A stretch of 50,349 nt of DNA, taken from positions 1-50,349 of the forward strand of contig JBOIGD010000105.1 of the NCBI GenBank assembly GCA_050742615.1, read 5' to 3'. Within the stretch, counting starts at the first letter, position 1. Every line of letters starts with the position of its first letter. This DNA is from Casimicrobiaceae bacterium. GTDB lineage: Bacteria; Pseudomonadota; Gammaproteobacteria; Burkholderiales; Casimicrobiaceae. Below the pieces are notes generated by a model. That model was not told the origin of the DNA and did no database searches. It worked only from the letters and a program-made list of their open reading frames with translations. A program made the position numbers and the translations under genes. Below, in pieces: positions 13,033 through 50,349 of the stretch.

Positions 13033-13085
13033 CACAAGTCCCGTCTTTCGAATTGTGAAATCCGGGCCGCCACCCCTGTCCAAAC

Positions 13086-33370: not shown

Positions 33371-33390
33371 CCAATCCCGGTCAAACAAAA

Positions 33391-33417
33391 GCGCCCCTGC
33401 GGGGGCGGCTTTATTTT
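33391..33417. terminator. Rho-independent-type terminator hairpin, possibly bidirectional
   Basis: CGCCCC-TGCG-GGGGCG stem-loop followed by GCTTTATTTT on the plus strand. The complement is followed by TTTTGTTTG. It sits between convergent genes, the small + strand gene and the - strand sulfotransferase. Confidence 0.6.
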
Positions 33418-33628
33418 GTGCCGCGAAACACGCTTCTTTCAGTTGCTTAAAAGTGGTGACCGTTTTCGACCGAGCAATCGATCGAGCTCGCGGAAAGCCG
33501 ACATTCGGCGGCTGAGACGCGGCGGTTGGCCATGGTCCGGCCGCACGGGACGGCGGAGGAATCCCGCGCTAGGGTCGCGCTCCGCCGATCGGTCCTAGCG
33601 GTCGTCCCCGACGCGCGGGCGGCGTAGA

Positions 33629-34639
33629 TCATCCATCGCTGCCGCCCCGCCGCGAAAGGCGCCGGCGCCACGACGCGAGCAGCGTTCCCTTGCGCCGGCG
33701 GTCAAGCAGATCGTCGGCGAAACGCGAGTAGCGGACGGAGGGGCGCGGCCGCTCGGGGTCGCGCTCGAGGTAGCCGAAGCTCAGGAGCTCGGGCTTCGCG
33801 ATCTCGACGACCTCCTGCAACGCCCGCGCCGGCGCGCGCCGGTGCTTGCCGAGCGAGGTCAGCCGCACGAGCGGGGCGACACGCGATATGGCCCCCGCCG
33901 GATCCGGGGCGCCGGCGAAGCGGAGCACCCGCTCGGCGGTCGCGGCGAAGTCCGCGCATAGGTCCTCGTAGCGGACTTCCAGATAGCGCTCGCCAAGCAT
34001 CGATCCGTACGCGCGTCCCACGCGGACGGCATTGCTCCAGTGCACGGCGTTGTAGAGATGGCTGCGCCGCCGGTACGACGGCCCCGTGAGCCGCAGGCCG
34101 CGCCAGGTCGCGATCCGGTCGGTGTCGAAGTAGACCTTGCGCCAGAACGGATCGTCGGGCGCGCGGTGGTCGCAGAACGCGACGTCCCGCCCGTCGCGCA
34201 CCAAGTGCACGACGCGCAGACGGCGGAAGAGTCGCACGAGGATTGGCAGCGCGTACCCGCTCTCGCAAACCTTCCAGCCCCAGGGCGCCGTCGACGTCCG
34301 GTCGAAGCCCTCAAGATGCGCATCGAAGCATTCGCGCGCGCGCCGGCCCACGTCGCGGGTGGCACACCCGGCCGAGCGGAGCCTTGCGTAGTCCGGGTAG
34401 TAGCATCGCACCAGATGCTCGATCAGCGCGAGCACGTCGAGCGAGTCCTCAGACTCGTTGCGGTGTGCGCCCATGAAGATCCCGGCCTCGGTGAGGAGGA
34501 GCGCGAGCAGGCGGCTTCCCGAGTGCGACTTGTTATAGACGATCACCGGCCCGCTCAGCCCGGCGTACGCATCGCTGACGGCATCCAGCGTCGTCTCGTC
34601 GTTCCCAATCATGGCTATATCGAATGGCCGGTCGCGCAC
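33629..34639 (-). CDS. Sulfotransferase-family protein
   Basis: PAPS-loop-like VIVYNKSHSGSRLLALLL, PWGWKVCESGYALPILVRLFRRLRVVHLVRDGRDVAF (3'-PB-type RDxRDV), and a C-terminal YLEVRYEDL. It is homologous by eye to 13086-13769. Start GTG at 34639 or ATG at 34612. Confidence 0.7.
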   Translation of the reverse strand: MRDRPFDIAMIGNDETTLDAVSDAYAGLSGPVIVYNKSHSGSRLLALLLTEAGIFMGAHRNESEDSLDVLALIEHLVRCYYPDYARLRSAGCATRDVGRRARECFDAHLEGFDRTSTAPWGWKVCESGYALPILVRLFRRLRVVHLVRDGRDVAFCDHRAPDDPFWRKVYFDTDRIATWRGLRLTGPSYRRRSHLYNAVHWSNAVRVGRAYGSMLGERYLEVRYEDLCADFAATAERVLRFAGAPDPAGAISRVAPLVRLTSLGKHRRAPARALQEVVEIAKPELLSFGYLERDPERPRPSVRYSRFADDLLDRRRKGTLLASWRRRLSRRGGSDG

Positions 34640-34669
34640 TCTGGGCCGAGGCCGGGATTAGAATGGGTC

Positions 34670-35923
34670 ATGCAGGATCCCGCTTCCCGAACAGACTATC
34701 ATGCGCCCTCCGGCCCGCTCGCGCGGCGGCGCCTGGGAGCCGGCAAGGCGGCCGCGGCACGCTTCGCCGTCCAGCGCTTCGGGTTCGGCGGTCGGCGCGC
34801 GAGGATGTCCGTGTGGTTCCACGGCGCGAGCGACGCGCAGTTCGATGCGGCGGCCGGCGTTGTCCGCGCCGTCATGGGCGGCCGCGGCGACCTTGCGCTC
34901 GTCGTGACGGCGCGCGACGCCGCCGTGGTCGAGGTGCTACGCCGAAGGTTCCCCGACGATCTCGCGCTCGCCGCACCTTGTGGCAAAGGGGGCAGCATCG
35001 CGCGGTTTCTCGCCCGCGTGCGTCCGTGCGCGCTCGTTCTTCTCGACGATGGCCGCGGCCTTGATCCGGCGGCCCTCGCGCGGCTGCGCGCGTCGCCGCT
35101 GCCCATCGTCGCGATGGGTGACGGTGCAGGCGCTGCAGCGGCAATCGGCGCGCTGTCCGCGTCGCTGCGCGACCTTCCTCCGGCCGTGCCAGCGGGCGCG
35201 CTGGTGGGACCGGCGTGGCAGGTGCCGACGCTGCGCGACCGGGTGGGGCAGAGCCGATCGTGGAAGGCCGTGGCGCCGCTCCTTATGCTTCGCCGCATCG
35301 ACGGCTGGGAGCGTCTTCGCGAGCGCCTCTCGCGGCCGCGCTCCGTGCTCTGCCTGGGCAACGGCCCGTCGTCGGAGGATCCGCAGTTGGCGGCGGTCGG
35401 GCACGACTGTCTCATCCGGGTGAACTGGCGCTGGCGGGAGCGCGGATTTTTGGTCCGACCGAACATCGTCTTCGTTGGCGACGCGGCCACGATCCATAAG
35501 GCGCCGCCGTGCATCTTCGGCTTGTGGAGCGTGAATCTCGAGCACGCGATGCTGTTGCGGCATCTGGTCACGCACGGCCCCATCGCGATGGAGTATTTCA
35601 CCGCCGAACGGCTTTCGCCGCTGGCCGCGGAGCAGCGCTGGCAGGTGCGGCCAAGCAACGGCGCGCTCGCGATCGTCACGGCCGCGGCGCTCGCGCCGGA
35701 GCGCCTGATCATCGGTGGCATGGACCTCTTCCGGCATCCCGACGGCCGCTATCCGGGCGAAGGCAGGTCGCGCAACGAATACTCCACGGCGCACAAGCTC
35801 GAGACCGAGCTTGCCATCATTGATCTCGCGCTTCGCAACTTCCGCGGCGAAGTCGTCATCCTCAGCGGAATCCTGCGCGACCATCTCGAACACTACCGCG
35901 AGAGCACGCGTCGTGTTGCCTGA
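34670..35923 (+). CDS. Chimeric glycosyltransferase: Kdo-transferase N-terminal-domain-like region fused to a CstII/GT42-like (sialyltransferase-type) domain
   Basis: The N half, RFAVQRFGFGG...VWFHGASDAQFDAA...LVVTARD...FPDDLALAAPCGKGGSIARFLARVRPCALVLLDD...LPIVAM, parallels WaaA RWGERYGF...HSVSVGE...VTTMT...YLPYD...RFL...P.LVLIME. The C half, VLCLGNGPSSED...DCLIRVNWRW, RPSNGALAIVTAAALAPERLIIGGMDLF and YSTAHKLETELAIIDLAL, parallels CstII AGNGPSLKE...DVFRCNQFY, ITSGVYMCAVAIALGYKEIYLSGIDFY and IGHSKNTDIKALEFL. The track ORF upstream of 34670 is antisense to the sulfotransferase. Confidence 0.6.
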   Translation: MQDPASRTDYHAPSGPLARRRLGAGKAAAARFAVQRFGFGGRRARMSVWFHGASDAQFDAAAGVVRAVMGGRGDLALVVTARDAAVVEVLRRRFPDDLALAAPCGKGGSIARFLARVRPCALVLLDDGRGLDPAALARLRASPLPIVAMGDGAGAAAAIGALSASLRDLPPAVPAGALVGPAWQVPTLRDRVGQSRSWKAVAPLLMLRRIDGWERLRERLSRPRSVLCLGNGPSSEDPQLAAVGHDCLIRVNWRWRERGFLVRPNIVFVGDAATIHKAPPCIFGLWSVNLEHAMLLRHLVTHGPIAMEYFTAERLSPLAAEQRWQVRPSNGALAIVTAAALAPERLIIGGMDLFRHPDGRYPGEGRSRNEYSTAHKLETELAIIDLALRNFRGEVVILSGILRDHLEHYRESTRRVA

Positions 35924-36983
35924 CGCCATCTTCGGGGACGTTCCGCCGCGCAGGATACTCGCCGTCAAGCTGGGCTCGTTCGGCGACATCGTGCAGACGA
36001 CGGCGAGCCTGCGGGCGCTGCGGCGCGCATTTCCTGCCGCCGACATCCGCGTTGCCGTCGAGCGGCGCTGGGCACCACTGCTCGCTGCCTGCCCCGACGT
36101 GAACGGCGTCCTCGAAGCGTCGTCCCGCCAGCGGCTCACGCCGAGCCACGTCTGGGAGGTGCGGCGCCTGCTTGCTGAGGCTTGCCGCCGACCGGGACCT
36201 TTCGACCTCGCCCTGGACTTCCAGGGAACGCGACGGAGCGCCGCGTGGGTCTATCTGAGCGGCGCCCGCGTCAAGGCCGGCAGGGGGAAGCCCCGCCCCG
36301 GCTGGCGCGCGGCCATCGCAATGGACCGCACGCGCCACGCCGTGCGCGGGTACGCCGACGTCTGCGAGTGCATCGGGATCGCGGCCGGCGACCTCGACCC
36401 GGCACTGTACACGTCGCCCGACGACGAAGCGCGGATCGAGGCGATCCTCGACGGCGCGCGGCTTCCGCGCAGCGGATTCGTGCTGCTCAACCCGTTCAGC
36501 GTGTGGCCTTCGAAGAGCTGGGATGAGCGTCGCGCTGCGGAACTCGCGTCGCAGGTGGCGAGCGTGACACGCGCGGCCGTCGTCGTGACCGGCGGGGACA
36601 ACGAGAGCGCCCGCGCCGCCGACGTCGTCCGCCTTGCCCGCCATGGAAGCGTGTCGTCGCTCGCGGGCCGGCTCTCTCTCGGCGAGGCGCTGTGCCTGTT
36701 CCGGCGCGCGCGCCTCATGATCTCCTGCGATTCGGGTCCGATGCATGCGGCGGCTGCCCTGGGAACCCCGGTCGTCGCGCTCTTCGGCCCGACACTCCCC
36801 GAGCACACGGGGCCGTGGGGACCGGGGCACAGGGTCGTGCAGGCATCGCGGCCGCCCGATCATCATGCGTATCGGCGGGACCACGGGCGGCAGCACATGG
36901 GGGCGCTTGGCGTGCAGGCGGTTGCCGATGCCGTCCAGGGGGCCATGCGCGCGACCGCCGCGGCCGCGGCAACGCCGCGATGA
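35913..36983 (+). CDS. Glycosyltransferase family 9 (heptosyltransferase-like)
   Basis: RRILAVKLGSFGDIVQTTASLRALRRAFPAADIRVAVERRWAPLLAACPDVNGVLE, and a C-terminal LMISCDSGPMHAAAALGTPVVALFGPT. The GTG at 35913 overlaps the upstream gene by 11 nt. Confidence 0.85.
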   Translation: MLPDAIFGDVPPRRILAVKLGSFGDIVQTTASLRALRRAFPAADIRVAVERRWAPLLAACPDVNGVLEASSRQRLTPSHVWEVRRLLAEACRRPGPFDLALDFQGTRRSAAWVYLSGARVKAGRGKPRPGWRAAIAMDRTRHAVRGYADVCECIGIAAGDLDPALYTSPDDEARIEAILDGARLPRSGFVLLNPFSVWPSKSWDERRAAELASQVASVTRAAVVVTGGDNESARAADVVRLARHGSVSSLAGRLSLGEALCLFRRARLMISCDSGPMHAAAALGTPVVALFGPTLPEHTGPWGPGHRVVQASRPPDHHAYRRDHGRQHMGALGVQAVADAVQGAMRATAAAAATPR

Positions 36984-38071
36984 TCCGCCGCATCGCGGTC
37001 TTCCTGCCTAACTGGGTTGGCGACGCCGCGATGGCGACGCCGACACTGCGGGCATTGCGGAACCGCTTCGGTGCGGCCGTCGAGATGATCGGCATCATGC
37101 GCCCGCTCGTCGAAGAGGTCCTCTTTGGAACGCGGTGGATCGACACCGTGTGGCACTACGACCCTGCGGGCGCGGACCCGCGCCTGCGCTGGCCCGCGCT
37201 CGTCCGCCGGCTCCGCGGCGCCGCGGTCGATCTTTCGATCCACCTCACCAACGATTTCAAATCCGCCCTCGCGGCGCGGCTCGGCGGCGCGCGCCAGCGC
37301 GCGGGCTACGCGCGCAACGGGCGTGCCTGGCTGCTTACGACGCGGCTCGATCCCCCGCGACGAGGGCGCGAACTGCTGTCCGTCCCGGCGCTCGACTATT
37401 ACCTCGAGCTTGCTTACGCGCTCGGGTGCGCCAAGGAGTCGCCGCGGCTCGAGCTCGCCACCACGGCGCGCGACGACGAAGCGGCGGACCGCGCGTGGGC
37501 CGCGATCGGCATCCCCCCGGGCGAGGCGCCGGTCATCATCAATTCGAGCGGCACCTTCGGCTCGGCCAAGCTCTGGCCGGAACGCCACTGCGCCGCGCTT
37601 GCTGCGCGCATCGCCCGCGAACTCGGGCTCCACGTCGTCATTCTTTGCGGTCCCGCCGAGCGCGAGCACGCCGCGCGGGTCACGGTCGCGGCCGGCCACG
37701 CACGAGTGGCGAGCCTTGCCGGAATGCCGCTCTCGATCGGGCTCAGCAAGGCCTGCGTGCGCCGCGCGCGCTGCCTCGTGAGTACGGACAGTGGCCCGCG
37801 ACACTTCGGCGCGGCGTTCGGCGTGCCCGTTGTCGCACTCTTCGGACCGACGGACCCGGCGTGGACCGACACGCGCTACCCCGGTGAGGTTCGTCTCGCC
37901 AAGCCGGTCCCTTGCGGACCCTGCGGGCAGCGCGAGTGCGCGCTGCGCCACCACGCGTGCATGGAGCAGCTGTTGGTCGACGAGGTGTACCGCGAGGTCG
38001 CGCGCGCCGTTGCCGGCGGCAGCCCGCGACACGCGACGCCTCGTGCGACGTTACGCGGAGCTACGGCGTGA
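36980..38071 (+). CDS. Glycosyltransferase family 9, WaaF (heptosyltransferase II)-like
   Basis: IRRIAVFLPNWVGDAAMATPTLRALRNRF (compare PSWVGDMMM in WaaF), CLVSTDSGPRHFGAAFGVPVVALFGPTDP, and PCGPCGQRECALRHHACMEQL. ATGA overlap at 36980-36983. Confidence 0.85.
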   Translation: MIRRIAVFLPNWVGDAAMATPTLRALRNRFGAAVEMIGIMRPLVEEVLFGTRWIDTVWHYDPAGADPRLRWPALVRRLRGAAVDLSIHLTNDFKSALAARLGGARQRAGYARNGRAWLLTTRLDPPRRGRELLSVPALDYYLELAYALGCAKESPRLELATTARDDEAADRAWAAIGIPPGEAPVIINSSGTFGSAKLWPERHCAALAARIARELGLHVVILCGPAEREHAARVTVAAGHARVASLAGMPLSIGLSKACVRRARCLVSTDSGPRHFGAAFGVPVVALFGPTDPAWTDTRYPGEVRLAKPVPCGPCGQRECALRHHACMEQLLVDEVYREVARAVAGGSPRHATPRATLRGATA

Positions 38072-39228
38072 AGGTCGCACTCGTCTGCGATCGCTTCGAT
38101 CCCGCGGGCGGCGGCCTCGAGCAGTGGCTCTGCCAGCTCGCGCCACGGCTAGAGCGGCGCGGCCACGAGGTGCACGTCATCGCCTTTCGTGTCGCCGCAG
38201 ATGTTGGACGCGAGCGGATGCATAGGCTCGCGTGGAGCGCGGACCGCCTCGAACGCGCTGCCGCCGTCGAGCGCACCGTCGTCGCCCTCGCGCCGGACGT
38301 CACCCACGACACCGGGGTCGGGTGGAGCTACGACGTCCTCCAGCCGCAGGCGGGCTCGATGCTCGCGAACCACCGACGCGACCTCGCGAGCCTGTCGCCC
38401 GGCGCGCGGATGCGCCGGTGGGTGAGTCCTGCCTGGCATCGCTGGCGACGCGAAGCGCGGGAGCTGGAGCGACGCCAGTACGTCCTCGCGAAAGGCCTCG
38501 TGATCGCCGTCTCCGGCATGGTCGCGCGCGAGATCCAGTCGCGCTTCGGGGTTGGGGCCGAGCGCCTGCGCGTCGTCCCGAACGGCGTCGACACCGACCG
38601 CTATGCGCCCGCGCGATGCGCCGCGGTGCGCGCCACCGCGCGCGCGCACGTCGGTGCCGACAGGACGGCATCGGTCTTTCTGTTCGCGGCCCGCAACCCG
38701 GGGCTCAAGGGGCTTTTGCCGCTGCTTCGGGCCACCGCCATCCTCCGCGCGAGCGGCGCGCCCATCCGGGTCGTCGCGATTGGAAGCGAGCCGGACGCGC
38801 TGTTCCGGCGCGAGGCCGTGCGCCTTCGCGTCGACGACGTCGTGACCTTCGCGGGCGTCGTCGACGATCCGGCGCTCCACTACGCAGCGGCGGACGCGTT
38901 CGTCCTGCCGACCTACTACGACGCCTGCAGTCTCACCGCCCTCGAGGCGTGCGCGTGCGGCCTGCCCGTCATCACGTCCCGCCACAACGGCGCCGCCGAG
39001 CTCATGTCGCACGATCGCGACGGCTTCGTGCTGGACGAGCCCGACAACGTGCGTAGCCTCGCGGCGCTCATGACTCGGGCCACCGACGTGGGAGTGTGGC
39101 AGCGGGTGTCGCTCGCGGCGCGGCAGCTCGCGCTTCGCAACACGCTGGAGCGCAATGTCGACGCCGTCGAGAATGCGTACTTCGAAGCGCTCGCCCGCCG
39201 GGCCACCGCGTCGCGCCCCGCCGGGTGA
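38068..39228 (+). CDS. Glycosyltransferase family 4 (GT-B, group 1)
   Basis: VKVALVCDRFDPAGGGLEQWLCQLAPRLERRGHEVHVIA at the N terminus. The C-terminal FVLPTYYDACSLTALEACACGLPVITSRHNGAAEL is an E-x7-E-type motif. GTGA overlap at 38068-38071. Confidence 0.85.
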   Translation: MKVALVCDRFDPAGGGLEQWLCQLAPRLERRGHEVHVIAFRVAADVGRERMHRLAWSADRLERAAAVERTVVALAPDVTHDTGVGWSYDVLQPQAGSMLANHRRDLASLSPGARMRRWVSPAWHRWRREARELERRQYVLAKGLVIAVSGMVAREIQSRFGVGAERLRVVPNGVDTDRYAPARCAAVRATARAHVGADRTASVFLFAARNPGLKGLLPLLRATAILRASGAPIRVVAIGSEPDALFRREAVRLRVDDVVTFAGVVDDPALHYAAADAFVLPTYYDACSLTALEACACGLPVITSRHNGAAELMSHDRDGFVLDEPDNVRSLAALMTRATDVGVWQRVSLAARQLALRNTLERNVDAVENAYFEALARRATASRPAG

Positions 39229-39259
39229 TCGCCGTCCGGACGCTTTCGCACATGCCGAC

Positions 39260-40243
39260 ATGCTGAAGACAGCGCGACGAATATTGGTCACCGGAGCCGG
39301 CGGATTCATCGGCTCGCACCTCGTCGAGTCACTCGTCGAGCGCGGCTGCCGGGTGCGCGCCATGGTCCGGTACACGTCCGGTGGCGGGCGGGGGTGGCTC
39401 GATGACGTACCCGCCGCCGCCGATGTCGAGTTCGCGGCCGGCGACGTGCGCGATCACGACACGGTGCTGGCGGCGATGACCGGGTGCGACGTCGTGTTTC
39501 ACCTGGCCGCGCTGATCGGGATTCCCTACTCGTACGTCTCTCCGCTCGCCTACGTGCGGACGAACGTCGATGGCATGCTCAACGTACTCGAAGCGGCCCG
39601 GGCGCTCGGCGTGGCCCGGGTCGTCGTGACCTCGACGAGCGAAGTCTACGGGACCGCGCAGTACTGCCCGATGGACGAAGCGCATCCGGTGCATTGCCAG
39701 TCACCGTACGCGGCGAGCAAGGCGGGCGCGGACCAGCTGGCCATAAGCTATCACCGCTCGTTCGGCCTGCCGGTCGCCATCGCCCGTCCGTTCAACGTCT
39801 ACGGGCCGCGCCAGTCGGACCGCGCGCTGATCCCGACGATCGCGACGCAACTCCTGGCGGGCGGCCCTGTCCGCCTCGGCAACGCCAGTCCCACCCGCGA
39901 CTTCACCTACGTCGTGGACACCGTTCGCGCCCTTGCCGCGGTTGCCAGCGCCGAGCACCTCATCGGCGAGGCTGCGAACATCGGCAGCGGCAACGAGATA
40001 TCCGTCGGCGCGCTGGCGAAACTGGTCGGCGAAGTTGCCGGCCGCGAAACGACGATCGCAAGCGACGACGACCGCGCGCGCCCGGGCACCAGCGAGGTCG
40101 AGCGCCTGTGCTGCGACAGCACGAAGCTGCGCTCGCTGACGGGATGGCGCCCCGCGACCCCGCTGGAGGACGGTCTGCGCCGGACGCTCGAGTGGATCGA
40201 GCCGCGCCTCGCGCGCTTCCGGATCGGTGAATACCGCGTGTGA
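39260..40243 (+). CDS. NAD-dependent epimerase/dehydratase (extended SDR, sugar-nucleotide 4,6-dehydratase-like)
   Basis: ILVTGAGGFIGSHLVESL (GxxGxxG), STSEVYG, and YAASKAGAD (YxxxK). Confidence 0.85.
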   Translation: MLKTARRILVTGAGGFIGSHLVESLVERGCRVRAMVRYTSGGGRGWLDDVPAAADVEFAAGDVRDHDTVLAAMTGCDVVFHLAALIGIPYSYVSPLAYVRTNVDGMLNVLEAARALGVARVVVTSTSEVYGTAQYCPMDEAHPVHCQSPYAASKAGADQLAISYHRSFGLPVAIARPFNVYGPRQSDRALIPTIATQLLAGGPVRLGNASPTRDFTYVVDTVRALAAVASAEHLIGEAANIGSGNEISVGALAKLVGEVAGRETTIASDDDRARPGTSEVERLCCDSTKLRSLTGWRPATPLEDGLRRTLEWIEPRLARFRIGEYRV

Positions 40244-40246
40244 CAC

Positions 40247-40942
40247 ATGAAGGCAGTCATCCTCGCGGGCGGCGAAGGACGCCGGCTCCATCCTTACACG
40301 CTCACGATCCCGAAACCGATGATGCCGATCGGCGACCGGCCGATCCTTGAACTCCTGGTCGAGCAGCTGCGCCGATGCGGAATCACCGACCTTGTCCTGG
40401 CAACCGGCCACCTCAGCGAGATCATTCGCGGCCACTTCGGCGACGGCCGCGACTTCGGTGTGTCGATCCGCTATTCGAAGGAGGAGAACGCGCTCGGCAC
40501 GGCCGGGCCCCTCGGCCTCGTCCGGACGGCGCTCGACCGGACGTTCCTGGTGCTCAACGGAGACATCTTCGCCGATCTCGATCTTGGGGCGATCATCGCG
40601 GATCATCGACACAGGGCAAGCGACGCGACCGTGGTCCTCGCGCGCCACGCCGAGACGTTCGAGTTCGGCGTCGTCGGTCTGGACGAGCGCGGCGACGTCA
40701 CTTCGTGGGACGAAAAGCCGGTCGTCGAGCGCCTCGTGAGCGCCGGCGCCTACGTCATGGAGCCCGCAACGCTCGCGCACCTCGAGCCGTCTGCGTACGC
40801 CAACCTCCCGGACCTCGTCATGGCGCTCGTCCGCGCGCGACTGCGTGTTCGTGGGCACGTGCACACAGGTTATTGGTACGACATCGGCAGCCCCGGCGAC
40901 TACGAGCGCGCGTGCGCCGCCGCGCGCGTTGCGCAGCAATGA
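40247..40942 (+). CDS. Sugar-1-phosphate nucleotidyltransferase (NTP_transferase family; size and opening resemble HddC-type heptose-1-P guanylyltransferases)
   Basis: MKAVILAGGEGRRLHPYTLTIPKPMMPIGDRPILE is the canonical G-x-G-x-R-L signature. At 231 aa it has no left-handed beta-helix extension. Confidence 0.8.
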   Translation: MKAVILAGGEGRRLHPYTLTIPKPMMPIGDRPILELLVEQLRRCGITDLVLATGHLSEIIRGHFGDGRDFGVSIRYSKEENALGTAGPLGLVRTALDRTFLVLNGDIFADLDLGAIIADHRHRASDATVVLARHAETFEFGVVGLDERGDVTSWDEKPVVERLVSAGAYVMEPATLAHLEPSAYANLPDLVMALVRARLRVRGHVHTGYWYDIGSPGDYERACAAARVAQQ

Positions 40943-41811
40943 GCGAAGCGCTGCGCGTGCTCGTCGCGGGCGGCAGCGGGTTCATCGGCGCCGCGATCGC
41001 GCGACGGCTGCGCGCAGAAGGCGCAAATGTTACGATCGCGAGCCTTGCCAGCGGCGTCGATCTCGCCCGTTGGGAGGCCGTCGAGGGCCTGGGTCCCTTC
41101 GCCGCGATCGTGCATGCGGCGGGGCGCGCGTCGGTGCAGGATTCGTTCGCGTCGCCGCGCTCGTACTATCGCGACCATCTTCTCATCACGCTCAACCTGC
41201 TCGAGCTGGCACGGCTATCGCACGCCCGACTCGTGCTCGCGAGCACCTACGTCTACGGCACGGCGCCGCGCGTGCCCGCGGCGGAGGACGATGCCATCGG
41301 GGCGCACTCGCCCTACACGGCGAGCAAGCTGCTGGCGGAACGCCTCTGCCGCGAGTACCACCGCGACTTCGGGGTGCCCGTCGACGTTCTGCGCGTCTTC
41401 AATGCCTACGGTCCCGGCCAGCCGGACACGTTCCTCATCCCGCGAATCGTCGCCGGCGCCGTCGCCGGCCGCATCGAACTTGCTGACCCGGCGCCGCGAC
41501 GCGATTTCGTCCATGTCGACGACGTCGCGCGCGCTTTCGCACTCGCTGCGCGGCGCGCTGCAGGAGACTTCGAGATCTTCAACATCGGGTCGGGCGAAAG
41601 CCGCTCAGCCGACGCGGTCGCCAGGACCGCGGCGAGACTGGCCGGCGGCGCAGTTGAGATCTTCTACTCCGGCGTGATTCGCGCAGCCGAAATGGCCGAC
41701 GCGCGCGCCGATGTCGCCGAGGCCGCGCGGGAGCTCGCGTGGCGGGCGACGATCGATTTCGAGGCGGGCCTCGCGTCGCTGGTCGCGGCGGCCAAGGGTG
41801 CGCGATCGTGA
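40939..41811 (+). CDS. NAD-dependent epimerase/dehydratase (SDR), reductase/epimerase-like
   Basis: VLVAGGSGFIGAAIARRL, and YTASKLLAE (YxxxK). ATGA overlap at 40939-40942. Confidence 0.8.
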   Translation: MSEALRVLVAGGSGFIGAAIARRLRAEGANVTIASLASGVDLARWEAVEGLGPFAAIVHAAGRASVQDSFASPRSYYRDHLLITLNLLELARLSHARLVLASTYVYGTAPRVPAAEDDAIGAHSPYTASKLLAERLCREYHRDFGVPVDVLRVFNAYGPGQPDTFLIPRIVAGAVAGRIELADPAPRRDFVHVDDVARAFALAARRAAGDFEIFNIGSGESRSADAVARTAARLAGGAVEIFYSGVIRAAEMADARADVAEAARELAWRATIDFEAGLASLVAAAKGARS

Positions 41812-42902
41812 CGCCCCGCCGCCTCATCGCCTACACCCACGCGCGCGACGACCCGGCCGCGCGCTTCCGGATACGCCAGTTCATTCCCCGCTTCGAGCGC
41901 GCCGGCTGGAGCGTGTCGCACCGGACCAACCACCCGGAGCGTCCGTGGCAGAGTCCTTTCTCCGCGCAATCCGCACGCTGGGTGCACCAGCATGCGGGTG
42001 TCGCGGTCCGCCGGCTCTGGCGACGATGGGATATCCGCGCCGCGGCTGCGTTCGACGTCGCCTTCGTCAACCGCGACCTGCTGGAAGGCCGCGTTGCGTA
42101 CGAGGCCGCGCTCCTGCGCCGCAACGCCCGGGTTGTCTTCGACTTCGACGACGCGATCCATCTCGGACGGAAGGAAGCGCACGTCGCATGGATCTGCGCG
42201 CATGCCGCCTGGGTCACCGCAGGGAACGCGCTGCTCGCCCATGTCGCCCGCCGCTATACAGACCGAGTGAGCGTGGTCCCGACCGTCGTCGACACCGATA
42301 CGTATTCGGCGCCCGCCGATCCGCGGGAGGACGGCCCGCTGCGTCTCGGCTGGCTCGGCTCGGACCTTTCAATCCGCGAGACGCTCTTTCCGTTCCTGCC
42401 GACGCTCGCAGCGCTGCAGCAGGCGATCGGCTTCGAATTCGTCGTGGTATCGAAACCGCGCCCGAACCTGCCGAGCAGCCCGCTGCGCTGGCGGTTCGTC
42501 GAGTGGAACCCCGAGGTCGAGACCCGGATCGCCGGGCTCTTCGACGTCGGAATCATGCCGCTGGAGGACAACGCATTCCAACGCGGCAAGTGCGGGTGCA
42601 AGCTGCTGCAGTACATGGCGGCCGGCCTCCCCGCCGTAGCGTCGCCCGTCGGCGTAAACGCGCGACTCCTCGACGATGGACGGGGCTTCCTCGCGAACGA
42701 TCGCGACGCATGGGGCGCGGCGTTGATGCGACTCCGCGACACCGCGCTGCGTCGCGAACAGGGCGCCGCCGCGCGCCGGTTCGTCGAACGCGAGTACTCG
42801 GTCACCGCCTGGTTCCCGCATCTGCTCGACATCGTCGAGAGCGTGCGGGTGGGTGAGCGCCCCGACGGGGCCGGCGTCCGGGCGTCCGAAAATGGCGGCT
42901 GA
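41808..42902 (+). CDS. Glycosyltransferase (GT-B, group-1-like C-terminal domain)
   Basis: LRLGWLGSDLSIRETLFPFLP...VGIMPLEDNAFQRGKCGCKLLQYMAAGLPAVASPVGVN resembles the Glyco_trans_1_2-type C terminus. GTGA overlap at 41808-41811. Confidence 0.7.
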   Translation: MTPRRLIAYTHARDDPAARFRIRQFIPRFERAGWSVSHRTNHPERPWQSPFSAQSARWVHQHAGVAVRRLWRRWDIRAAAAFDVAFVNRDLLEGRVAYEAALLRRNARVVFDFDDAIHLGRKEAHVAWICAHAAWVTAGNALLAHVARRYTDRVSVVPTVVDTDTYSAPADPREDGPLRLGWLGSDLSIRETLFPFLPTLAALQQAIGFEFVVVSKPRPNLPSSPLRWRFVEWNPEVETRIAGLFDVGIMPLEDNAFQRGKCGCKLLQYMAAGLPAVASPVGVNARLLDDGRGFLANDRDAWGAALMRLRDTALRREQGAAARRFVEREYSVTAWFPHLLDIVESVRVGERPDGAGVRASENGG

Positions 42903-43113
42903 GGCTTTCCCGGCCGCTGGCCGAGTGGCCGGTCGGGCATGCGCGGCTTTGTGGCGGGCTTCCTCATGGCCGCAGGCAGGCCCGTCGATCCGCGATCAAC
43001 GCGGTTCATCACCGATGCCGATGGCCGCTGAGATGCATATGCAGGCGATCGCGGAGGCCTCGCCGGCCCGACGCGAGTGTCGGTCGGCATGTTGGTGCGG
43101 TTGAGGCGTGCCG

Positions 43114-43725
43114 ATGCACCCCCGTGTCTTCGCCGAGTTCGACCGCATCTGCCGCGAGCGCCGGGCCGGCGGCGATGTGCTCGAGATCGGTGCGGTCGCG
43201 CCGCCCGACGCGTTGCTTTGCCTGCCCGCACTCGCGCAGGCGCGGAGTCGCATCGGGGTGAACCTGACCGGCGACGCCTGCTTCGAGGGCTGGCGGATCG
43301 TCGGCGCCAACGCCAACGACCTCGGCTGCTTCGCCGACGCGTCGTTCGACACCGTGCTGGCGAACTCGGTCTTCGAGCACGATCCGTTCTTCTGGCGCTC
43401 GCTGCGGGCGATGCGCCGCGTCGCGCGCCCGGGCGCCGTGATCGTCGTCGGCGTCCCAGGCTATGCGACGGACGGCCCCGGGCGATTGCTGAAACGGCTC
43501 GCGCACCTGCCGGTGCTCGGTGCCGCGGTGCGCCGCTGCGCGGCCTCGCGTCTCGCGTCGACCGCGACGCTGGGCATCCACGACTTCCCTGGAGACTACT
43601 ACCGCTTCAGCCCGCAGGCCGTGCGCGAAGTGCTGCTCGACGGGCTCGTCGACCGCGACGTTCGTCGTATCCTCTTGCCGCCCCGTCTGGTGGGCTCGGG
43701 GATCGTCCCGGCGCGCCCGGCGTGA
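43114..43725 (+). CDS. Class I SAM-dependent methyltransferase
   Basis: DVLEIGAV (motif I-like), ASFDTVLANSVFEHDPFFWRSLRAMRRVARPGAVIVVGVP (Methyltransf_11-type). The ATG at 43114 lies 7 nt after GAGG. The track start is the GTG at 43108. Confidence 0.7.
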   Translation: MHPRVFAEFDRICRERRAGGDVLEIGAVAPPDALLCLPALAQARSRIGVNLTGDACFEGWRIVGANANDLGCFADASFDTVLANSVFEHDPFFWRSLRAMRRVARPGAVIVVGVPGYATDGPGRLLKRLAHLPVLGAAVRRCAASRLASTATLGIHDFPGDYYRFSPQAVREVLLDGLVDRDVRRILLPPRLVGSGIVPARPA

Positions 43726-43750
43726 TCGACGCCCCACCGGCGCGCGGCCC

Positions 43751-44131
43751 ATGTCGGCGGCCTTGGCCGTGCTTGCGCGCACCGCGGTGGCGGACGACAT
43801 TCGCGCGGTCTTCTGCGCGTCCATGAACATCGCCGCAACGATGCTCCCCACCGGAGTCAGGATTCTCGAGATCGGCGAGTTCTCGCTGTTCAAGCGCAAC
43901 CTTCCCGGGCAAACGACCCTCGTCTTCACCGGCGACAACCCGGACCGGCTGGCGGGCTCGATCACCGCCGGTTCGGCCCCGCGATGCTGCCGGGCCTGTT
44001 GCGGTCGCTGCGCCGTGGTTTTGAGCCACTATTCGCTGCCCCGGATCTTGCGAAGCACCTTGCGGCAGATCAAGTACGCGCGTAGCGACGGCTTGGTCAG
44101 CGGCAGCCGCGCGAACATCCCGCGCAAGTAG
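43751..44131 (+). other. Coding-like ORF of uncertain status at the right border of the GC-rich island (possible truncated gene)
   Basis: MSAALAVLARTAVADDIRAVFCASMNIAATMLPTGVRILEIGEFSLFKRNLPGQTTLVFTGDNPD... has strong GC3 bias up to about 43990. After that the ORF turns Cys/Arg-rich and overlaps the convergent deacetylase gene by about 100 nt. Confidence 0.25.
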
Positions 44132-45956: not shown

Positions 45957-46156
45957 TTTTCCCCCGATACGGCTCGGCGCTCTAGCGCGGAGGAATGAGT
46001 GCCGCGGCGACCGCCCGACCTCAACTTCAAGCCGATGTCCAATTTACTACGAGGCAACCGCAGATGTGTGCGAGTGCGGCGCGAAGGGTTACATTGGCAC
46101 CAACAGCTCGAGCACACCGATTATTACGGCCCAAAAGACAAACGAAGGCAAGATAA

Positions 46157-46642: not shown

Positions 46643-47845
46643 CTACGGCCGTCCGCCGCCTTGGCGGCCCGGTTGCTGGCGACCGCCTCGACGCGCTGGC
46701 CGATTGGTGCCAGCAGTCGGCCTGCGCGTCTGCGGGCTTCGCGCGTCGCGCCACTCGTAGCGCAACCCGCGCCAGAGGCGCAGCGGAAGGTGTCCGAGCG
46801 ACGGCAGCCGCCAGCGCGCGAGCAAGTAGCCCGGAAGCTGGCGCGATGCGCGGGCAAAGGAGTAACGCTCGCCCCAAGCTTGGCGATATCTCGACGCGTG
46901 CGCAGCGATGCGTTCGCGCATCGTGCCTGTCGCTCCCGGCCGCAGCGGCGGCGACCCTTGCGGCGGCCACTCGGTGCCGATCGACGCTGGCAGCATCTTT
47001 GGCACCAGTTCCCGCAAGTCGCGAAGGATCCCCTGCCATTCCGGCGCGATCGGGGCTTGCCGGGCGCGCGCGAAAAAGCGCTGCCAATCTGGCACCGCCC
47101 TCATCGCGTCCAGAGACAGTAGCAAGTCGGCGATCTGCCCGAATGCGTTCCCCACGACCGGTCGCCGGCAGAGATCGTGGACGGTGTCGGCTCCGCCCAA
47201 TATCAGCACCGGCTCGCTCGCCATTCGTGCGCGACCGGCACGCTCCCAGACCTCCGTGGGGAACCGACCGCGCCGATCGCACGGGTCGCATTGCCATTGC
47301 AGGTCCAGCGTCTGTCCATCGCCGTGCTGCCACACCAGGCGATCGGCGCCCAGCACGTAGCCGGCTAGGAACCAGCGCGGCAAGCGCACGCCGGCGTGCC
47401 AGCCCAGTCGCCACAGACAGCGGATCGCCGCCTCCGCCTGCGAGCCACGCACTGCACAGGCGAGCGGCACCTGCCTTCGGAGCACTGCGGTTACATCATG
47501 CAGCAGCACTGCCGCGGGCGGCACGATCAACAACTCGATGCCCGCCGCGGCGAGCGCCTGGAGGGTGGGGTGGAATTGTCGCGCGCGGCGCTGGTTCGCA
47601 TACCACGCCTGCAACGTGATGCCCTTCAGTCGAGGTAGCAGTGGATCGTCGCCGCCCTGTCGGCGCAGGTTGCGGTAGGTCCTGGGCAGCAGCCGGAAGG
47701 CGTCGTGATCGAGGTGCGCCTCCCAGTCGATGGCATCGCGCCAGCGGCGCCACGCCTCGACGGCGGTCTCGTCCGTACCGAAGGCGGCCCGCAGCAAGTC
47801 CGCCTGTAACGGCGTCAACGAAGCAACGCCCGGCGTTACGCTCAT
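46643..47845 (-). CDS. PF14907-like (uncharacterised nucleotidyltransferase family) protein, possibly non-catalytic
   Basis: LTPLQADLLRAAFGTDETAVEAWRRWRDAIDWEAHLDHDAFRLLPRTYRNLRR...RLKGITLQAWYANQRR...LAAAGIELLIV follows the family's N-terminal pattern as I remember it. Its ATG overlaps the ABC exporter stop (ATGA at 47842-47845). Confidence 0.5.
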   Translation of the reverse strand: MSVTPGVASLTPLQADLLRAAFGTDETAVEAWRRWRDAIDWEAHLDHDAFRLLPRTYRNLRRQGGDDPLLPRLKGITLQAWYANQRRARQFHPTLQALAAAGIELLIVPPAAVLLHDVTAVLRRQVPLACAVRGSQAEAAIRCLWRLGWHAGVRLPRWFLAGYVLGADRLVWQHGDGQTLDLQWQCDPCDRRGRFPTEVWERAGRARMASEPVLILGGADTVHDLCRRPVVGNAFGQIADLLLSLDAMRAVPDWQRFFARARQAPIAPEWQGILRDLRELVPKMLPASIGTEWPPQGSPPLRPGATGTMRERIAAHASRYRQAWGERYSFARASRQLPGYLLARWRLPSLGHLPLRLWRGLRYEWRDARSPQTRRPTAGTNRPARRGGRQQPGRQGGGRP

Positions 47846-49659: not shown

Positions 49660-49672
49660 CAGGCGGCAGCTT

Positions 49673-50349
49673 TCATAAGCGCTGGTAGACCTCGCTCGCC
49701 TCGAAGCTCTCGCGAAAGTAGCCGGGATCGAGCTTGGCGCGGATGTCGCAACCCAGGAGATACTGGTGCGCGGCGCGCAGGCGGCCAAGATCCGTCACCC
49801 TTGCGGCCGCATCGGCCGGGTCGCAGCAGTACAGCGGGTAGCTTGCTCCGAGATACTCCACCACCGCCGGCAGCGGATTGACCAGCAGCGGCGTGCCCCG
49901 GACGATGCATTCGATGACCGTGTTGTTCGCGCTAGCGTCGTGCAGCTCGACAAAGACGACATTCTCGGCCAGCAAGGCGTCGTATGCGTCGTTGGGCAGG
50001 TGCGCGCGCGTCTCGACGTCGTCGCCGTCCGGATCGAGCGTGAGGCCGAGCATGGCACATTCCCGCGCGAATAGCTCGCGCAGGTGCGCCTCGGCGCCGG
50101 GAGCGAAGTCGGGCGCAAGCCGCAGCTTGCGATAGCCGAGCGGGTTGTCGGCCGCGATCGGAAGGCGATAGAGGGCGGTCAGCCGGCGCAGCCACCAGCC
50201 GATCTGCACGATCCGCTTGCACGGATTGCCGAGAAAGCGATCGAAATCGAACGTCACGGCCGGCCGAACCGTCGGGTGGATCAGCGCCGACACCGGCTTT
50301 CCGGTCGTCTTTCTCAACCAGCGGGCGAGATGCTCGGACAGGGCGAACA
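49673..50349 (-). CDS. Hypothetical protein, 3' part only (continues past the right edge); C terminus faintly GT-B-like
   Basis: The frame is open to the window edge. The segment VVFVELHDASANNTVIECIVRGTPLLVNPLPAVVEYLG resembles the donor-binding helix region of GT-B enzymes. The stop lies 13 nt before the ABC exporter start. Confidence 0.45.
   Translation of the reverse strand, partial: FALSEHLARWLRKTTGKPVSALIHPTVRPAVTFDFDRFLGNPCKRIVQIGWWLRRLTALYRLPIAADNPLGYRKLRLAPDFAPGAEAHLRELFARECAMLGLTLDPDGDDVETRAHLPNDAYDALLAENVVFVELHDASANNTVIECIVRGTPLLVNPLPAVVEYLGASYPLYCCDPADAAARVTDLGRLRAAHQYLLGCDIRAKLDPGYFRESFEASEVYQRL

Follow-up and report, generated by a model that had tools for sequence, protein, structure and literature searches.

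A GC-rich ten-gene cassette from a Casimicrobiaceae bacterium with a predicted role in lipopolysaccharide inner-core assembly

A GC-rich block from an uncultured, Casimicrobiaceae-like betaproteobacterium is a discrete and real cassette of ten genes, nine on the plus strand and one, encoding a sulfotransferase, divergent from them. The reading that we favor, with confidence a little above even, is that it represents a mobile accessory assembly line for the inner core of lipopolysaccharide (LPS). The earlier note had interpreted the block as a horizontally acquired line that builds a heptose-containing, possibly sulfated and methylated oligosaccharide on a lipid A/Kdo-like or other acceptor; taken as a whole, this interpretation is supported in part. 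The window is the entire 50,349-nt stretch analyzed, contig JBOIGD010000105.1 of assembly GCA_050742615.1 from a Casimicrobiaceae bacterium (Burkholderiales).

Composition and gene content of the cassette

The GC content calculated in 1-kb windows is 0.69-0.74 at 34-44 kb versus 0.57-0.65 on both sides, and the block extends from ~33.5 to 44.0 kb (~10.4 kb). In 200-nt windows, GC jumps sharply on the left, from 0.56-0.64 at positions up to 33,400 to 0.75 at 33,500, and declines gradually on the right, from 0.69 at 43,700 to 0.62 by 44,200. The steps previously placed at about 33.6 and 44.0 kb are present in the computed profile and affect all three codon positions, with GC1/GC2/GC3 of 0.74/0.53/0.86 in the island genes versus 0.64/0.46/0.77 in 27 other window genes (Mann-Whitney p = 3e-5, 3e-4, and 1.5e-5, respectively). 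The island genes also encode less Lys (1.2% versus 3.1% in the other window genes) and more Arg (11.9% versus 8.1%). This composition is foreign to the Casimicrobiaceae-like host. In locus L009, the cassette is likewise slightly GC-richer than its own flanks, so that some of the excess may be a property of the cassette genes themselves. Four off-frame open reading frames (34937-36139, 38149-39375, 39701-40939, and 43009-43965), previously dismissed as artifacts, have GC1 (0.77-0.86) above GC3 (0.71-0.77), which is an antisense-shadow pattern. Elsewhere in the window, a second GC high (0.66-0.685) is found at 6-10 kb.

The features of the cassette and its surroundings are as follows.

33392..33407, no strand: hairpin resembling a bidirectional terminator, located in the native flank immediately beyond the left border
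33629..34639, minus strand: G0, PAPS-type sulfotransferase (PF13469, 39 bits versus a cut-off of 27), divergent from the array
34670..35923, plus strand: G1, WaaA (GT30) N-domain remnant plus CstII/GT42-fold domain (PF04413; AlphaFold2; Foldseek)
35913..36983, plus strand: G2, GT9 (heptosyltransferase family; PF01075, 109 bits), overlapping the G1 stop
36980..38071, plus strand: G3, second GT9 (PF01075, 105 bits), ATGA junction with G2
38068..39228, plus strand: G4, GT4 retaining-type glycosyltransferase (PF13692, PF00534, PF13439), GTGA junction with G3
39260..40243, plus strand: G5, extended SDR of the NDP-sugar 4,6-dehydratase type (PF16363, 234 bits)
40247..40942, plus strand: G6, sugar-1-phosphate nucleotidylyltransferase (PF00483, 142 bits)
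40939..41811, plus strand: G7, short SDR epimerase/reductase (PF01370, 155 bits), ATGA junction with G6
41808..42902, plus strand: G8, GT-B glycosyltransferase of the Glycos_transf_1 type (PF13692, 36 bits; PF13524, 26 bits), GTGA junction with G7
42903..43107, plus strand: variable spacer, an indel hot spot, with a third GT9 gene in L001-L003
43108..43725, plus strand: G9, SAM-dependent methyltransferase (PF08241, 34 bits)
47842..49794, minus strand: MsbA-like fused ABC exporter (ABC_membrane plus ABC_tran), outside the GC island

The array, its divergent sulfotransferase, and all the junctions described in the earlier note can be read in the sequence, and Pfam and NCBIfam agree on the families that it named, except for the CstII-like half of G1. 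The junctions comprise ATGA at 36980 and 40939, GTGA at 38068 and 41808, the GTG of G2 at 35913 overlapping the G1 TGA at 35921-35923, and a 3-nt separation of G5 and G6 (40244-40246). Two looser spacings, absent from the earlier note, separate genes 4 and 5 (31 nt) and genes 8 and 9 (205 nt); the third GT9 gene of L003 is located at 18238-19359 (PF01075, 89 bits). The more likely start of G0 is the ATG at 34612, giving a 327-aa product, in agreement with gene callers on identical contigs. The G0 sequence contains the motifs SGS (aa 40-42) and RDGRD (aa 148-152), and G9 contains VLEIG (aa 24-28).

The heptose, sulfate, methyl, and 6-deoxy sugar of the product are predicted from family membership. 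In NCBIfam, G2 scores under the equivalog cut-offs for HepI, HepII, and HepIII (best for HepIII, 121 versus 170), and its nearest PDB relatives are 3tov, WaaF 1psw, and WaaC 2gt1. The best NCBIfam match of G3 is HepII TIGR02195 (116 versus a cut-off of 135). G5 scores 431 against TIGR04180 (LegB; cut-off, 475) and has dTDP-glucose 4,6-dehydratase 1r66 as its best PDB match, whereas G6 is closest in the PDB to UTP-glucose-1-P and GDP-mannose pyrophosphorylases. The exporter matches TIGR02203 (MsbA) best, with 272 versus a cut-off of 602. Neither the GT9s nor G5 nor the exporter reach the WaaC/F/Q, LegB, and MsbA equivalog cut-offs, which is a point against an LPS assignment. A scan of gene products throughout the window detected no Wzx/Wzy, Wzm/Wzt, or phosphoglycosyl transferase, as reported before, but that survey overlooked the MsbA-like exporter at 47842-49794.

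The WaaA remnant and the CstII-like domain

G1 consists of a WaaA N-domain (aa 35-147, about nt 34772-35110) and a CstII/GT42-fold domain (aa 205-417, about nt 35282-35920). This agrees with the KdtA-N/CstII-like chimera recognized earlier, its N-terminal half being detected by PF04413 (32.6 bits, aa 35-126 only) and its C-terminal half by structure prediction, Foldseek, and a profile run against PDB sequences. Compared with the long forms, G1 is missing a central stretch of roughly 230 aa, and it lacks the entire CMP-binding half of WaaA. WaaA residues S28-I29-G30-E31 align with S54-D55-A56-Q57 of G1, so that the catalytic pair G30/E31 is lost, and the lipid IVA phosphate contacts S54/R56 of WaaA are replaced by D83/A85. 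Judging from these alignments and the structural model, G1 is a degenerate, catalytically dead WaaA N-domain joined to a predicted CstII-fold domain. With both the CMP-binding domain and G30/E31 lost, the WaaA-like part cannot transfer Kdo. Because the phosphate contacts are missing, the acceptor may not be lipid A-proximal.

Foldseek searches with the AlphaFold2 model of G1 (pLDDT 85.8, pTM 0.83) retrieve CstII/Cst-I with a probability of 1.0 and a TM(target) of about 0.5, as well as WaaA 2xci. The top matches of the C-domain profile among PDB sequences are nine GT42 chains (E 1e-3 to 0.1). The GT42 motifs GNGPS...RxN and R-x-T/S-x-G...G-I/M-D-x-F/Y...Y align in this domain, at positions equivalent to R129, T131, G133, D154, and Y162 of CstII. 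H375 is invariant among 52 diverse family members, which resembles CstII, where the general base is a His (H188; PMC4202792). Thus, the G1 C-domain shares with the Campylobacter jejuni lipooligosaccharide sialyltransferases CstII/Cst-I (GT42) the fold, the CMP-binding motifs, and a locus of the lipooligosaccharide type. In contrast, identity in the structural alignments is just 13-17%, the domain has zero Pfam matches, CST-I included (no Pfam model covers it, and two G1 relatives match CST-I at 2.8e-5), and it is always located C-terminally to another GT-like or sulfotransferase module.

The CstII-like domain family is small and uncharacterized, with only 295 representatives in 1.84 billion protein clusters, and all its homologs come from metagenome-assembled genomes (MAGs) or metagenomes. 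The WaaA N-domain is found in 35 of the 52 family members. In P0151, P0200, and P0197, the fusion partner is a strong WaaA match over the full length, with both the G-E catalytic motif and E98 intact; the P0200 gene is directly followed by a GT9 gene. In P0249 and P0180, the partner is a KdoT-like PF06258 domain, the family to which the KdoIII transferase KdoT of Acinetobacter baumannii is annotated (PMC12856342). A KdsB/NeuA-type cytidylyltransferase gene is found 2 kb from P0249, and lptF/lptG are 7-9 kb away; L016 has a KdoO fragment upstream. The repeated fusion of the CstII-like domain to lipid A-core Kdo transferases from two unrelated families suggests a link to LPS and, together with the nearby LPS genes, indirectly favors the lipid A/Kdo-like acceptor envisaged earlier. 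Further fusions, to GT4 in P0085 and P0142 and to a sulfotransferase in P0140, suggest functional linkage within the cassette.

Distribution of the cassette and its flanks

The cassette is found in several phyla and was probably acquired horizontally. DNA similarity to four related MAGs (L001-L004) is 92-95% and confined to the cassette, starting at 33,546-33,633 and ending at 43,740-44,019; each genome has its own unrelated upstream flank, and the GC step is repeated in L002-L004. Other, high-GC Burkholderiales have the same gene set and order at 63-75% protein identity. In these genomes, the cassette is located between dnaE and a housekeeping pyridine-nucleotide oxidoreductase gene, without a GC step. 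It is also present in Acidobacteriia and in part (most of the core) in Isosphaeraceae. The foreign origin proposed earlier fits the compositional shift, the cassette-limited similarity with unrelated flanks, and the occurrence in other phyla. PanB, by which the host is classed as Casimicrobiaceae-like, likewise shares about 89% identity with proteins of Casimicrobiaceae, so a cassette identity of 92-95% is no proof of recent transfer.

An ordinary, sole LPS core-oligosaccharide locus, inherited vertically within Casimicrobiaceae and GC-rich through amino acid composition and codon bias, is unlikely. Such a locus could explain a content resembling waaA-waaC-waaF-waaG, the presence of the cassette in 5/5 close relatives examined, an identity similar to that of PanB versus family members, the small GC excess in L009, and the lack of mobility genes at the cassette. 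However, G1, lacking the CMP-binding domain and G30/E31, cannot replace WaaA, so a real waaA would have to lie elsewhere, and the GT9s score under the WaaC/F/Q cut-offs. Similarity ends at the GC borders, with unrelated upstream flanks in every genome, and the same genes recur in Acidobacteriia and, for most of the core, in Isosphaeraceae. In addition, the window and L001-L003 share only 78% identity in the neighboring ABC gene, versus 93-95% in the cassette.

Among L001-L003 themselves, the cassette and the ABC gene have diverged equally. This discordance, along with a composition that has not ameliorated (GC3 of 0.86 versus 0.77), makes it very unlikely that the cassette is an old, fixed acquisition, no longer mobile, with flanks that differ by rearrangement around a stable island. 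That scenario is consistent with the identity levels, which fit family-level divergence, with the MsbA-like gene downstream in both the window and L001-L003, and with the finding of no integrase, transposase, tRNA, or flanking repeats at the cassette.

The invariant core includes the CstII-like domain, GT4, the G8-type glycosyltransferase, the methyltransferase, and the sulfotransferase. The sulfotransferase gene adjoins the cassette in ten related loci with most or all genes and in L013, L014, and L017. G5 and G6 are jointly absent from L001 and L007, and the GT9 genes are absent from L014 and L017. Accordingly, the earlier description of the product as heptose-containing fits the window version, with its two GT9s, but not the core, and the conserved chemistry need not involve heptose. 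The MsbA-like exporter, a possible export partner, adjoins G9 in L001-L003, and in L014, an unrelated locus, a comparable exporter follows the sulfotransferase gene. L005, L006, L007, L009, and L011 gave no ABC match, nor is an ABC exporter among the called genes of L013 and L017.

A core that works without GT9, the adjoining exporter in L001-L003 and L014, and the loss of both the lipid IVA phosphate contacts and the catalytic pair could also indicate a non-LPS glycoconjugate, with the WaaA remnant serving as a membrane-binding module only. The candidates, which jointly are unlikely, are a sulfated and methylated glycolipid on another anchor, exported by the MsbA-like protein, a capsule linker or terminus, and a glycosylated protein; Kdo glycosylation of proteins is reportedly possible for sialyltransferase-fold enzymes (bioRxiv 10.1101/2020.06.03.131540). 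Against them stand the recurrent fusions to two unrelated lipid A-core Kdo-transferase families, some with an intact WaaA active site, and the LPS genes close by in other genomes. Moreover, the examined loci offer no candidate for a conserved acceptor-protein or lipid-synthesis gene beside the cassette.

Related systems and proposed assembly

In enterobacterial waa/rfa inner-core assembly, WaaA (GT30), WaaC/WaaF/WaaQ (GT9), and WaaG (GT4) act before the product is flipped by MsbA. The cassette has the same family order, a Kdo-transferase-related protein, two GT9s, and a GT4, and likewise implies sequential assembly without undecaprenyl-phosphate initiation or Wzx/Wzy, with an MsbA-like exporter nearby. 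Unlike in waa/rfa, the donor domain and catalytic pair of the first protein are gone, a GT42-fold domain has been added to it, and the GT9s are under the equivalog cut-offs. The cassette also includes a sugar-nucleotide module as well as methyltransferase and sulfotransferase genes, and it is compositionally foreign and cassette-like.

A. baumannii KdoT, a WaaA-independent KdoIII transferase, is a precedent for the addition of a further Kdo to Kdo2-lipid A by a non-GT30 enzyme, a step followed by the GT4 enzyme GnaT (PMC12856342). Its PF06258 family provides the fusion partner in P0249 and P0180, whereas G1 has no such GT-B, ELM1-like domain, and its catalytic candidate is the GT42 fold. Plant GT29-like RG-II Kdo transferase candidates and Maf flagellin glycosyltransferases are sialyltransferase-fold enzymes reportedly proposed or shown to use CMP-Kdo (PMC11288761; bioRxiv 10.1101/2020.06.03.131540). 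They would extend the fold class beyond sialic acids, but they belong to other families, with other acceptors and organisms, and are not known to be joined to WaaA-like modules.

The gene set, its coupling, the G1 fold and degenerate motifs, the cassette-wise conservation, the compositional shift, and the Kdo-transferase fusions are direct results; from this point on, we infer the donor, acceptor, step order, and product. In the favored inner-core reading, extension would take place at the cytoplasmic face of the inner membrane, with the dead WaaA N-domain of G1 docking on the membrane and a Kdo-lipid A-type acceptor. The CstII-like domain would transfer an ulosonic acid from its CMP-activated form. 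Kdo is the most plausible choice, because neither the cassette nor the window encodes a nonulosonic-acid synthase or CMP-sugar synthetase; a CstII-type sialic acid is improbable, because genes for the synthesis of sialic, legionaminic, or pseudaminic acid are absent from the window. G2 and G3 would then add heptose-type residues and G4 a hexose; G6, G5, and G7 might make an NDP-6-deoxy-hexose for transfer by G8. Methylation by G9 and sulfation by G0 would complete the product, which could be flipped by MsbA or the nearby MsbA-like exporter. Most likely, then, the cassette adds a short methylated and sulfated sugar chain to the lipopolysaccharide inner core.

Composition and gene content of the cassette

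The glycan cassette consists of a divergent sulfotransferase gene (G0) and a plus-strand array of nine genes (G1 to G9). Apart from the CstII-like half of G1, the content claimed for it in the earlier note is matched by Pfam and NCBIfam, and all of the junctions quoted there are seen in the sequence: ATGA at 36980 and 40939, GTGA at 38068 and 41808, an overlap at 35913-35923, and a 3-nt gap at 40244-40246.

Genes of the cassette and of the stretch that follows it in the window
G0, 33629-34639, minus strand: sulfotransferase (Pfam/NCBIfam)
G1, 34670-35923, plus strand: KdtA N-domain, aa 35-126 only (Pfam/NCBIfam)
G2, 35913-36983, plus strand: GT9, under the HepI/II/III equivalog cut-offs
G3, 36980-38071, plus strand: GT9, under the HepI/II/III equivalog cut-offs
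G4, 38068-39228, plus strand: GT4
G5, 39260-40243, plus strand: extended SDR dehydratase
G6, 40247-40942, plus strand: sugar-1-P nucleotidylyltransferase
G7, 40939-41811, plus strand: short SDR
G8, 41808-42902, plus strand: Glycos_transf_1-type glycosyltransferase
G9, 43108-43725, plus strand: methyltransferase
44029-47845, minus strand: polysaccharide deacetylase, GT4, and NTP_transf_5 protein; GC ~0.63, host-like

The GC step proposed at ~33.6 and 44.0 kb is present. GC was profiled at 1 kb and, for the borders, at 200 nt; it is 0.69-0.74 over 34-44 kb versus 0.57-0.65 on both sides. The left border is sharp, with 0.56-0.64 until 33,400 and a jump to 0.75 at 33,500, and the right border is gradual, falling from 0.69 at 43,700 to 0.62 by 44,200 (200-nt GC). 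Mean GC1/GC2/GC3 values are 0.74/0.53/0.86 for the ten island genes and 0.64/0.46/0.77 for 27 genes elsewhere in the window (Mann-Whitney P = 3e-5, 3e-4, and 1.5e-5, respectively). Lys accounts for 1.2% of the residues in island proteins versus 3.1% in the other window proteins, and Arg for 11.9% versus 8.1%. The shifts in GC1, GC2, Lys, and Arg indicate that the higher-GC signature extends beyond silent sites into the proteins themselves. The composition thus deviates from that of the host, as is typical of genomic islands. Four long off-frame ORFs, previously regarded as artefacts, are indeed present where the earlier note placed them and have GC1 > GC3, the mark of an antisense shadow. A second, weaker high-GC patch is found at 6001-10000 (0.66-0.685 in 1-kb windows), so that high GC in the window is not confined to the cassette; it codes for an FAD/BFD-type oxidoreductase and a beta-eliminating lyase.

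Both G2 and G3 belong to the GT9 family (PF01075, 109 and 105 bits, respectively; cut-off, 22), and neither reaches the equivalog level of HepI, HepII, or HepIII. The best equivalog is HepIII for G2 (121 versus a cut-off of 170) and HepII for G3 (116 versus 135). No gmhA, hldE, gmhB, or hldD was found among the window genes. A legionaminic-acid role of G5 was considered and rejected: G5 scores 430.8 bits against the LegB model TIGR04180, under its cut-off of 475, and no aminotransferase, NeuB-like synthase, or CMP synthetase gene was detected alongside it. Generic dTDP-, UDP-, and GDP-sugar enzymes resemble G5 and G6 to much the same extent and give the predicted 6-deoxy sugar no more specific name. 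The G0 sulfotransferase has no match among PDB sequences.

Elsewhere in the window, the gene products that were scanned are metabolic enzymes and transporters. None of the scanned window products is a Wzx/Wzy, Wzm/Wzt, or phosphoglycosyl transferase, consistent with the absence claimed earlier, and no WaaA is found among those of the rest of the window. The earlier interpretation is largely right but incomplete: it overlooked a fused ABC exporter of 650 aa, located downstream of the cassette on the minus strand. Its best NCBIfam match is MsbA (TIGR02203, 272 bits versus a cut-off of 602), which makes it MsbA-like only. The deacetylase/GT4/NTP_transf_5 stretch separates the cassette from the exporter in the window only; in L002 and L003, two related loci from other genomes, the exporter directly follows G9.

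A short plus-strand ORF within 33100-33407 ends at ~33,365 (...VTVTNTTGQIVHVTSISVDNNDLYDLAVGPPSTCTVGETLPPNGQCTIVLGIE) and is followed, just outside the island border, by a bidirectional terminator-like hairpin at 33392-33407. The divergent starts of G0 and G1 (34612-34670) are separated by only 30-57 nt, according to the start assumed for G0; at this distance, the two promoters must overlap or sit inside the neighbouring gene. A sigma-70 consensus scan of 32.9-44.8 kb, uninformative at such GC, returned no promoter. Elsewhere in the window, the 10360-13769 region, with a low GC of 0.57-0.59, encodes an 890-aa protein with a SEC-C motif, TPR repeats, GT2, and Glycos_transf_1, followed by a 236-aa SEC-C-motif protein. 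It may be a second, compositionally distinct glycan-related insertion.

The CstII-like domain and its WaaA-derived partner

The earlier note described G1 as a chimera of a KdtA N-domain and a CstII-like domain, and Foldseek searches of PDB agree, with WaaA matched by the N-domain and CstII/Cst-I by the C-domain. An AlphaFold2 model of G1, built from 38 homologs (pLDDT, 85.8; pTM, 0.83), indicates that the C-domain has the single-Rossmann GT-A-variant fold of GT42. Its top 10 Foldseek matches are all CstII or Cst-I (probability, 1.0; TM(target), 0.48-0.51), and the nine best PDB matches of a C-domain-only profile are GT42 chains (E values of 1e-3 to 0.1). HMM alignments to 9c08 and 2drj point to a GT42-type CMP-binding motif. 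Here, the GNGPS, R-P-T/S-N-G, G-I/M-D, and G-R-Y motifs of the G1 family fall on CstII motifs; the profile aligns GNGPS...RxN and R-x-T/S-x-G...G-I/M-D-x-F/Y...Y with those that include R129, T131, G133, D154, and Y162. The CMP-motif columns are invariant or nearly so in the family. H375, invariant in 52 diverse members, follows the GT42 motifs and lies 14 residues past the Y162 equivalent. It is a candidate general base, a role played by His in CstII (H188) and in Cst-I (H202) (PMC4202792).

The CstII-like domain of G1 has no existing Pfam model. Neither the C-domain alone nor a standalone homolog matches any Pfam family at E values up to 10; G1 does not match CST-I (PF06002), for which an E value of 2.8e-5 is seen in only two of 52 relatives. 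Across 1.84 billion cluster representatives, the CstII-like domain turned up in only 295 proteins, and among the best 150 of these it is nearly always the C-terminal module. No neuB/neuA-type genes are found in the cassette or the window, which points to a CMP-sugar other than CMP-sialic acid as the predicted donor.

The N-terminal part of G1 is a GT30 acceptor domain (PF04413, 32.6 bits; cut-off, 23.9; aa 35-126), with a PDB profile match to WaaA (2xci; E value, 1e-3) as well as Foldseek matches. Long relatives of ~630 aa contain a full WaaA-like GT-B structure followed by the CstII-like domain, and G1 corresponds to this long form minus the ~230-residue second Rossmann half. It therefore has no GT30 C-terminal domain, the part of WaaA that binds CMP (R212, N273, and E276 in the Aquifex aeolicus enzyme; PMC6286764). 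The G30/E31 catalytic pair of WaaA is replaced by A56/Q57, and the phosphate contacts S54/R56 by D83/A85; against the WaaA equivalog NF004388, G1 scores 28.5 bits, with a cut-off of 438. The loss of the CMP-binding half, of G30/E31, and of S54/R56 makes the WaaA-like part of G1 a noncatalytic remnant, plausibly retained as a module that binds the membrane or the acceptor. The cassette could instead be an ordinary LPS core locus and the only one in the organism, but this appears quite unlikely, given that G1 is unable to act as WaaA, that both GT9s fall under the equivalog thresholds, and that the block behaves as a cassette.

A WaaA N-domain is present in 35 of the 52 diverse family members. 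Individual proteins with the CstII-like domain are joined to, or encoded next to, a range of partners.

Fusion partners and neighbours of the CstII-like domain in individual proteins (P numbers) and one related locus (L016)
P0151, P0200, P0197: strong full-length WaaA (78-103 bits), then the CstII-like domain; G-E motif and E98 kept
P0200: GT9 gene directly after
P0249, P0180: PF06258 domain, then the C-domain; in P0249, a WaaA N-domain in between
P0249: KdsB/NeuA-type cytidylyltransferase gene at a distance of 2 kb, lptF/lptG at 7-9 kb
P0142, P0085: GT4 fusions
P0140: sulfotransferase fusion
L016: KdoO fragment upstream

PF06258 is the family in which KdoT, the KdoIII transferase of Acinetobacter baumannii, was annotated. 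This domain (KdoT, ELM1-like) is absent from G1, and the KdoT paper concerns a different fold. That the CstII-like domain acts at the Kdo region of LPS is best supported by its fusion to lipid A-core Kdo transferases of two families unrelated to each other. The GT4 and sulfotransferase fusions, for their part, appear to tie members of the cassette together functionally. The intact WaaA fusions, the degenerate WaaA-like fusions, and the N-domain remnant of G1 form a series, which we read, from sequence comparison, as a probable stepwise loss of WaaA function with the CstII-like domain retained. At another related locus (L021, 7125-9854), a KdoT-like::WaaA-N::CstII-like fusion lies beside a CTP_transf_3 cytidylyltransferase, a 384-aa protein with no Pfam match, and a histidine phosphatase. 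These neighbours may serve the fusion enzyme as a small module for CMP-sugar supply.

Distribution and exchange of the cassette

With G1 as the query, twelve loci were found among species-representative genomes. Four of them (L001-L004), from uncultured betaproteobacterial or Casimicrobiaceae MAGs, share 92-95% DNA identity with the window, and this similarity is limited to 33,633 (33,546 in L004) through 43,740-44,019, nearly the GC borders. The upstream flanks of L001-L004 are related neither to the window nor among themselves; those of L002-L004 encode, directly upstream of the cassette, an amine-oxidase-like protein, a GntR-type regulator, and an MFS transporter. The sole flank match to the window is the MsbA-like gene, at 78%, whereas among L001-L003 the cassette and the MsbA-like gene are conserved to the same degree, ~95%. 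The GC step recurs in L002-L004 (from 0.55-0.65 to 0.69-0.74). Three Burkholderiales MAGs (L005, L006, and L011), with 71-77% GC throughout, have the same genes in the same order (63-75% protein identity), placed between dnaE and a pyridine-nucleotide disulfide oxidoreductase gene with no GC step; here, the cassette looks native. More distant versions (~42-62% protein identity) are found in an Acidobacteriia MAG and, in part, in an Isosphaeraceae MAG, which makes Betaproteobacteria, Acidobacteriia, and, in part, Isosphaeraceae the carrier taxa. Cluster look-ups for a cultured carrier yielded MAG and metagenome proteins only. An Acidobacteriota locus (L015, 10001-12104) encodes the CstII-like domain alone (289 aa), with a GT2 gene and an IS110-family transposase as neighbours; no other part of the cassette is present there, and this standalone domain may be a remnant.

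The horizontal acquisition proposed earlier agrees with the compositional shift, the discrete borders with unrelated flanks in relatives, and the patchy phylogenetic distribution, all of which are marks of genomic islands. There is good support for a foreign origin of the cassette and for its exchange through recombination at the borders. Mobility signatures are absent from the window and the neighbouring genes: no tRNA or tmRNA was found across the window, the island is not bracketed by direct or inverted repeats (short chance-level GC-rich matches only), and no integrase is found among the genes next to the cassette, the window flank genes being metabolic or regulatory. With a PanB that shares 88-89% identity with named Casimicrobiaceae proteins, the host of the window is Casimicrobiaceae-like. 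Casimicrobium huifangae SJ-1 is reported to have been transformed with plasmid pBBR1MCS-2 (PMC13515534). Since PanB shows similar identity to family members, the 92-95% identity of the cassette is by itself no sign of recency, and a recent transfer was not accepted on that ground. The remaining evidence on recency is the discordance of the cassette (92-95%) with the ABC gene (78%), and we rate it very improbable that the cassette is an old, immobile acquisition.

Gene content varies among the loci. G5 and G6 are missing from L001 (5777-6274) and L007 (9624-9690), which retain G7 and G8, indicating that the sugar-nucleotide module can be dispensed with or comes from another source. The gap between G8 and G9, a 205-nt spacer in the window (42903-43107), is an indel hot spot; it holds a third GT9 in L001-L003 (18238-19359 in L003) and a different ~1-kb insert in L004. 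GT9 is absent from L017, which encodes G1, a GT4, a G8-type glycosyltransferase, a methyltransferase, and a sulfotransferase, and from L014, which encodes a fusion of GT4 and the CstII-like domain, a G8-type glycosyltransferase, a methyltransferase, a sulfotransferase, and an ABC exporter. The invariant core thus consists of the CstII-like domain, GT4, a second glycosyltransferase, methyltransferase, and sulfotransferase, and the GT9s and sugar-nucleotide genes are add-ons. A core free of GT9, together with the lost lipid IVA contacts in G1 and a dedicated exporter, would suit a non-LPS glycoconjugate as the product, an alternative that we consider unlikely.

Predicted assembly pathway and its implications

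We lean slightly towards sequential assembly at the cytoplasmic face on an acceptor of the Kdo-lipid A type. This reading builds on the observed gene set, folds, motifs, fusions, and conservation, from which we infer donor, acceptor, order, and product. G1 would move a CMP-activated ulosonic acid to the acceptor; the absence of genes for nonulosonic-acid synthesis makes Kdo the most plausible candidate. Heptose-type residues would then be added by G2 and G3 and a hexose by G4. G6, G5, and G7 would make an NDP-6-deoxy-hexose, to be transferred by G8. Methylation by G9 and sulfation by G0 would follow, and the product would be flipped by MsbA or the MsbA-like pump.

Assembly of the LPS inner core is generally seen as conserved, chromosomally fixed, and WaaA initiated, and the WaaA-independent Kdo transferase KdoT has been recognised only recently. 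Glycan islands of foreign composition are common, so that finding one is no surprise in itself; what deserves attention here is the G1 family, together with a predicted inner-core-type chemistry that is portable between phyla. No description of this gene combination was found in the literature, and we know of no previous account of portable sulfated/O-methylated inner-core chemistry or of core-locus mobility. A broader proposal, which we put forward as tentative, is that the C-domain of G1 represents a new GT42-offshoot family that moves Kdo or another CMP-ulosonic acid to lipid A-Kdo, having arisen from a fusion with a working WaaA and later dispensed with WaaA catalysis. With GT4, the second glycosyltransferase, methyltransferase, and sulfotransferase, it might form a cross-phylum portable module that gives a sulfated, O-methylated LPS inner core.

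The cassette would add a further candidate family of enzymes that transfer a CMP-ulosonic acid at the lipid A-proximal core, one in which a path can be followed from the intact WaaA fusion through degenerate WaaA to the N-domain remnant. It would also make inner-core-type chemistry, with predicted sulfation and methylation, a unit common to Betaproteobacteria, Acidobacteriota, and Planctomycetota. With the functions as predicted, both points touch on glycosyltransferase classification and on the outer-membrane charge and the phage and antimicrobial-peptide susceptibility of soil and wastewater bacteria.
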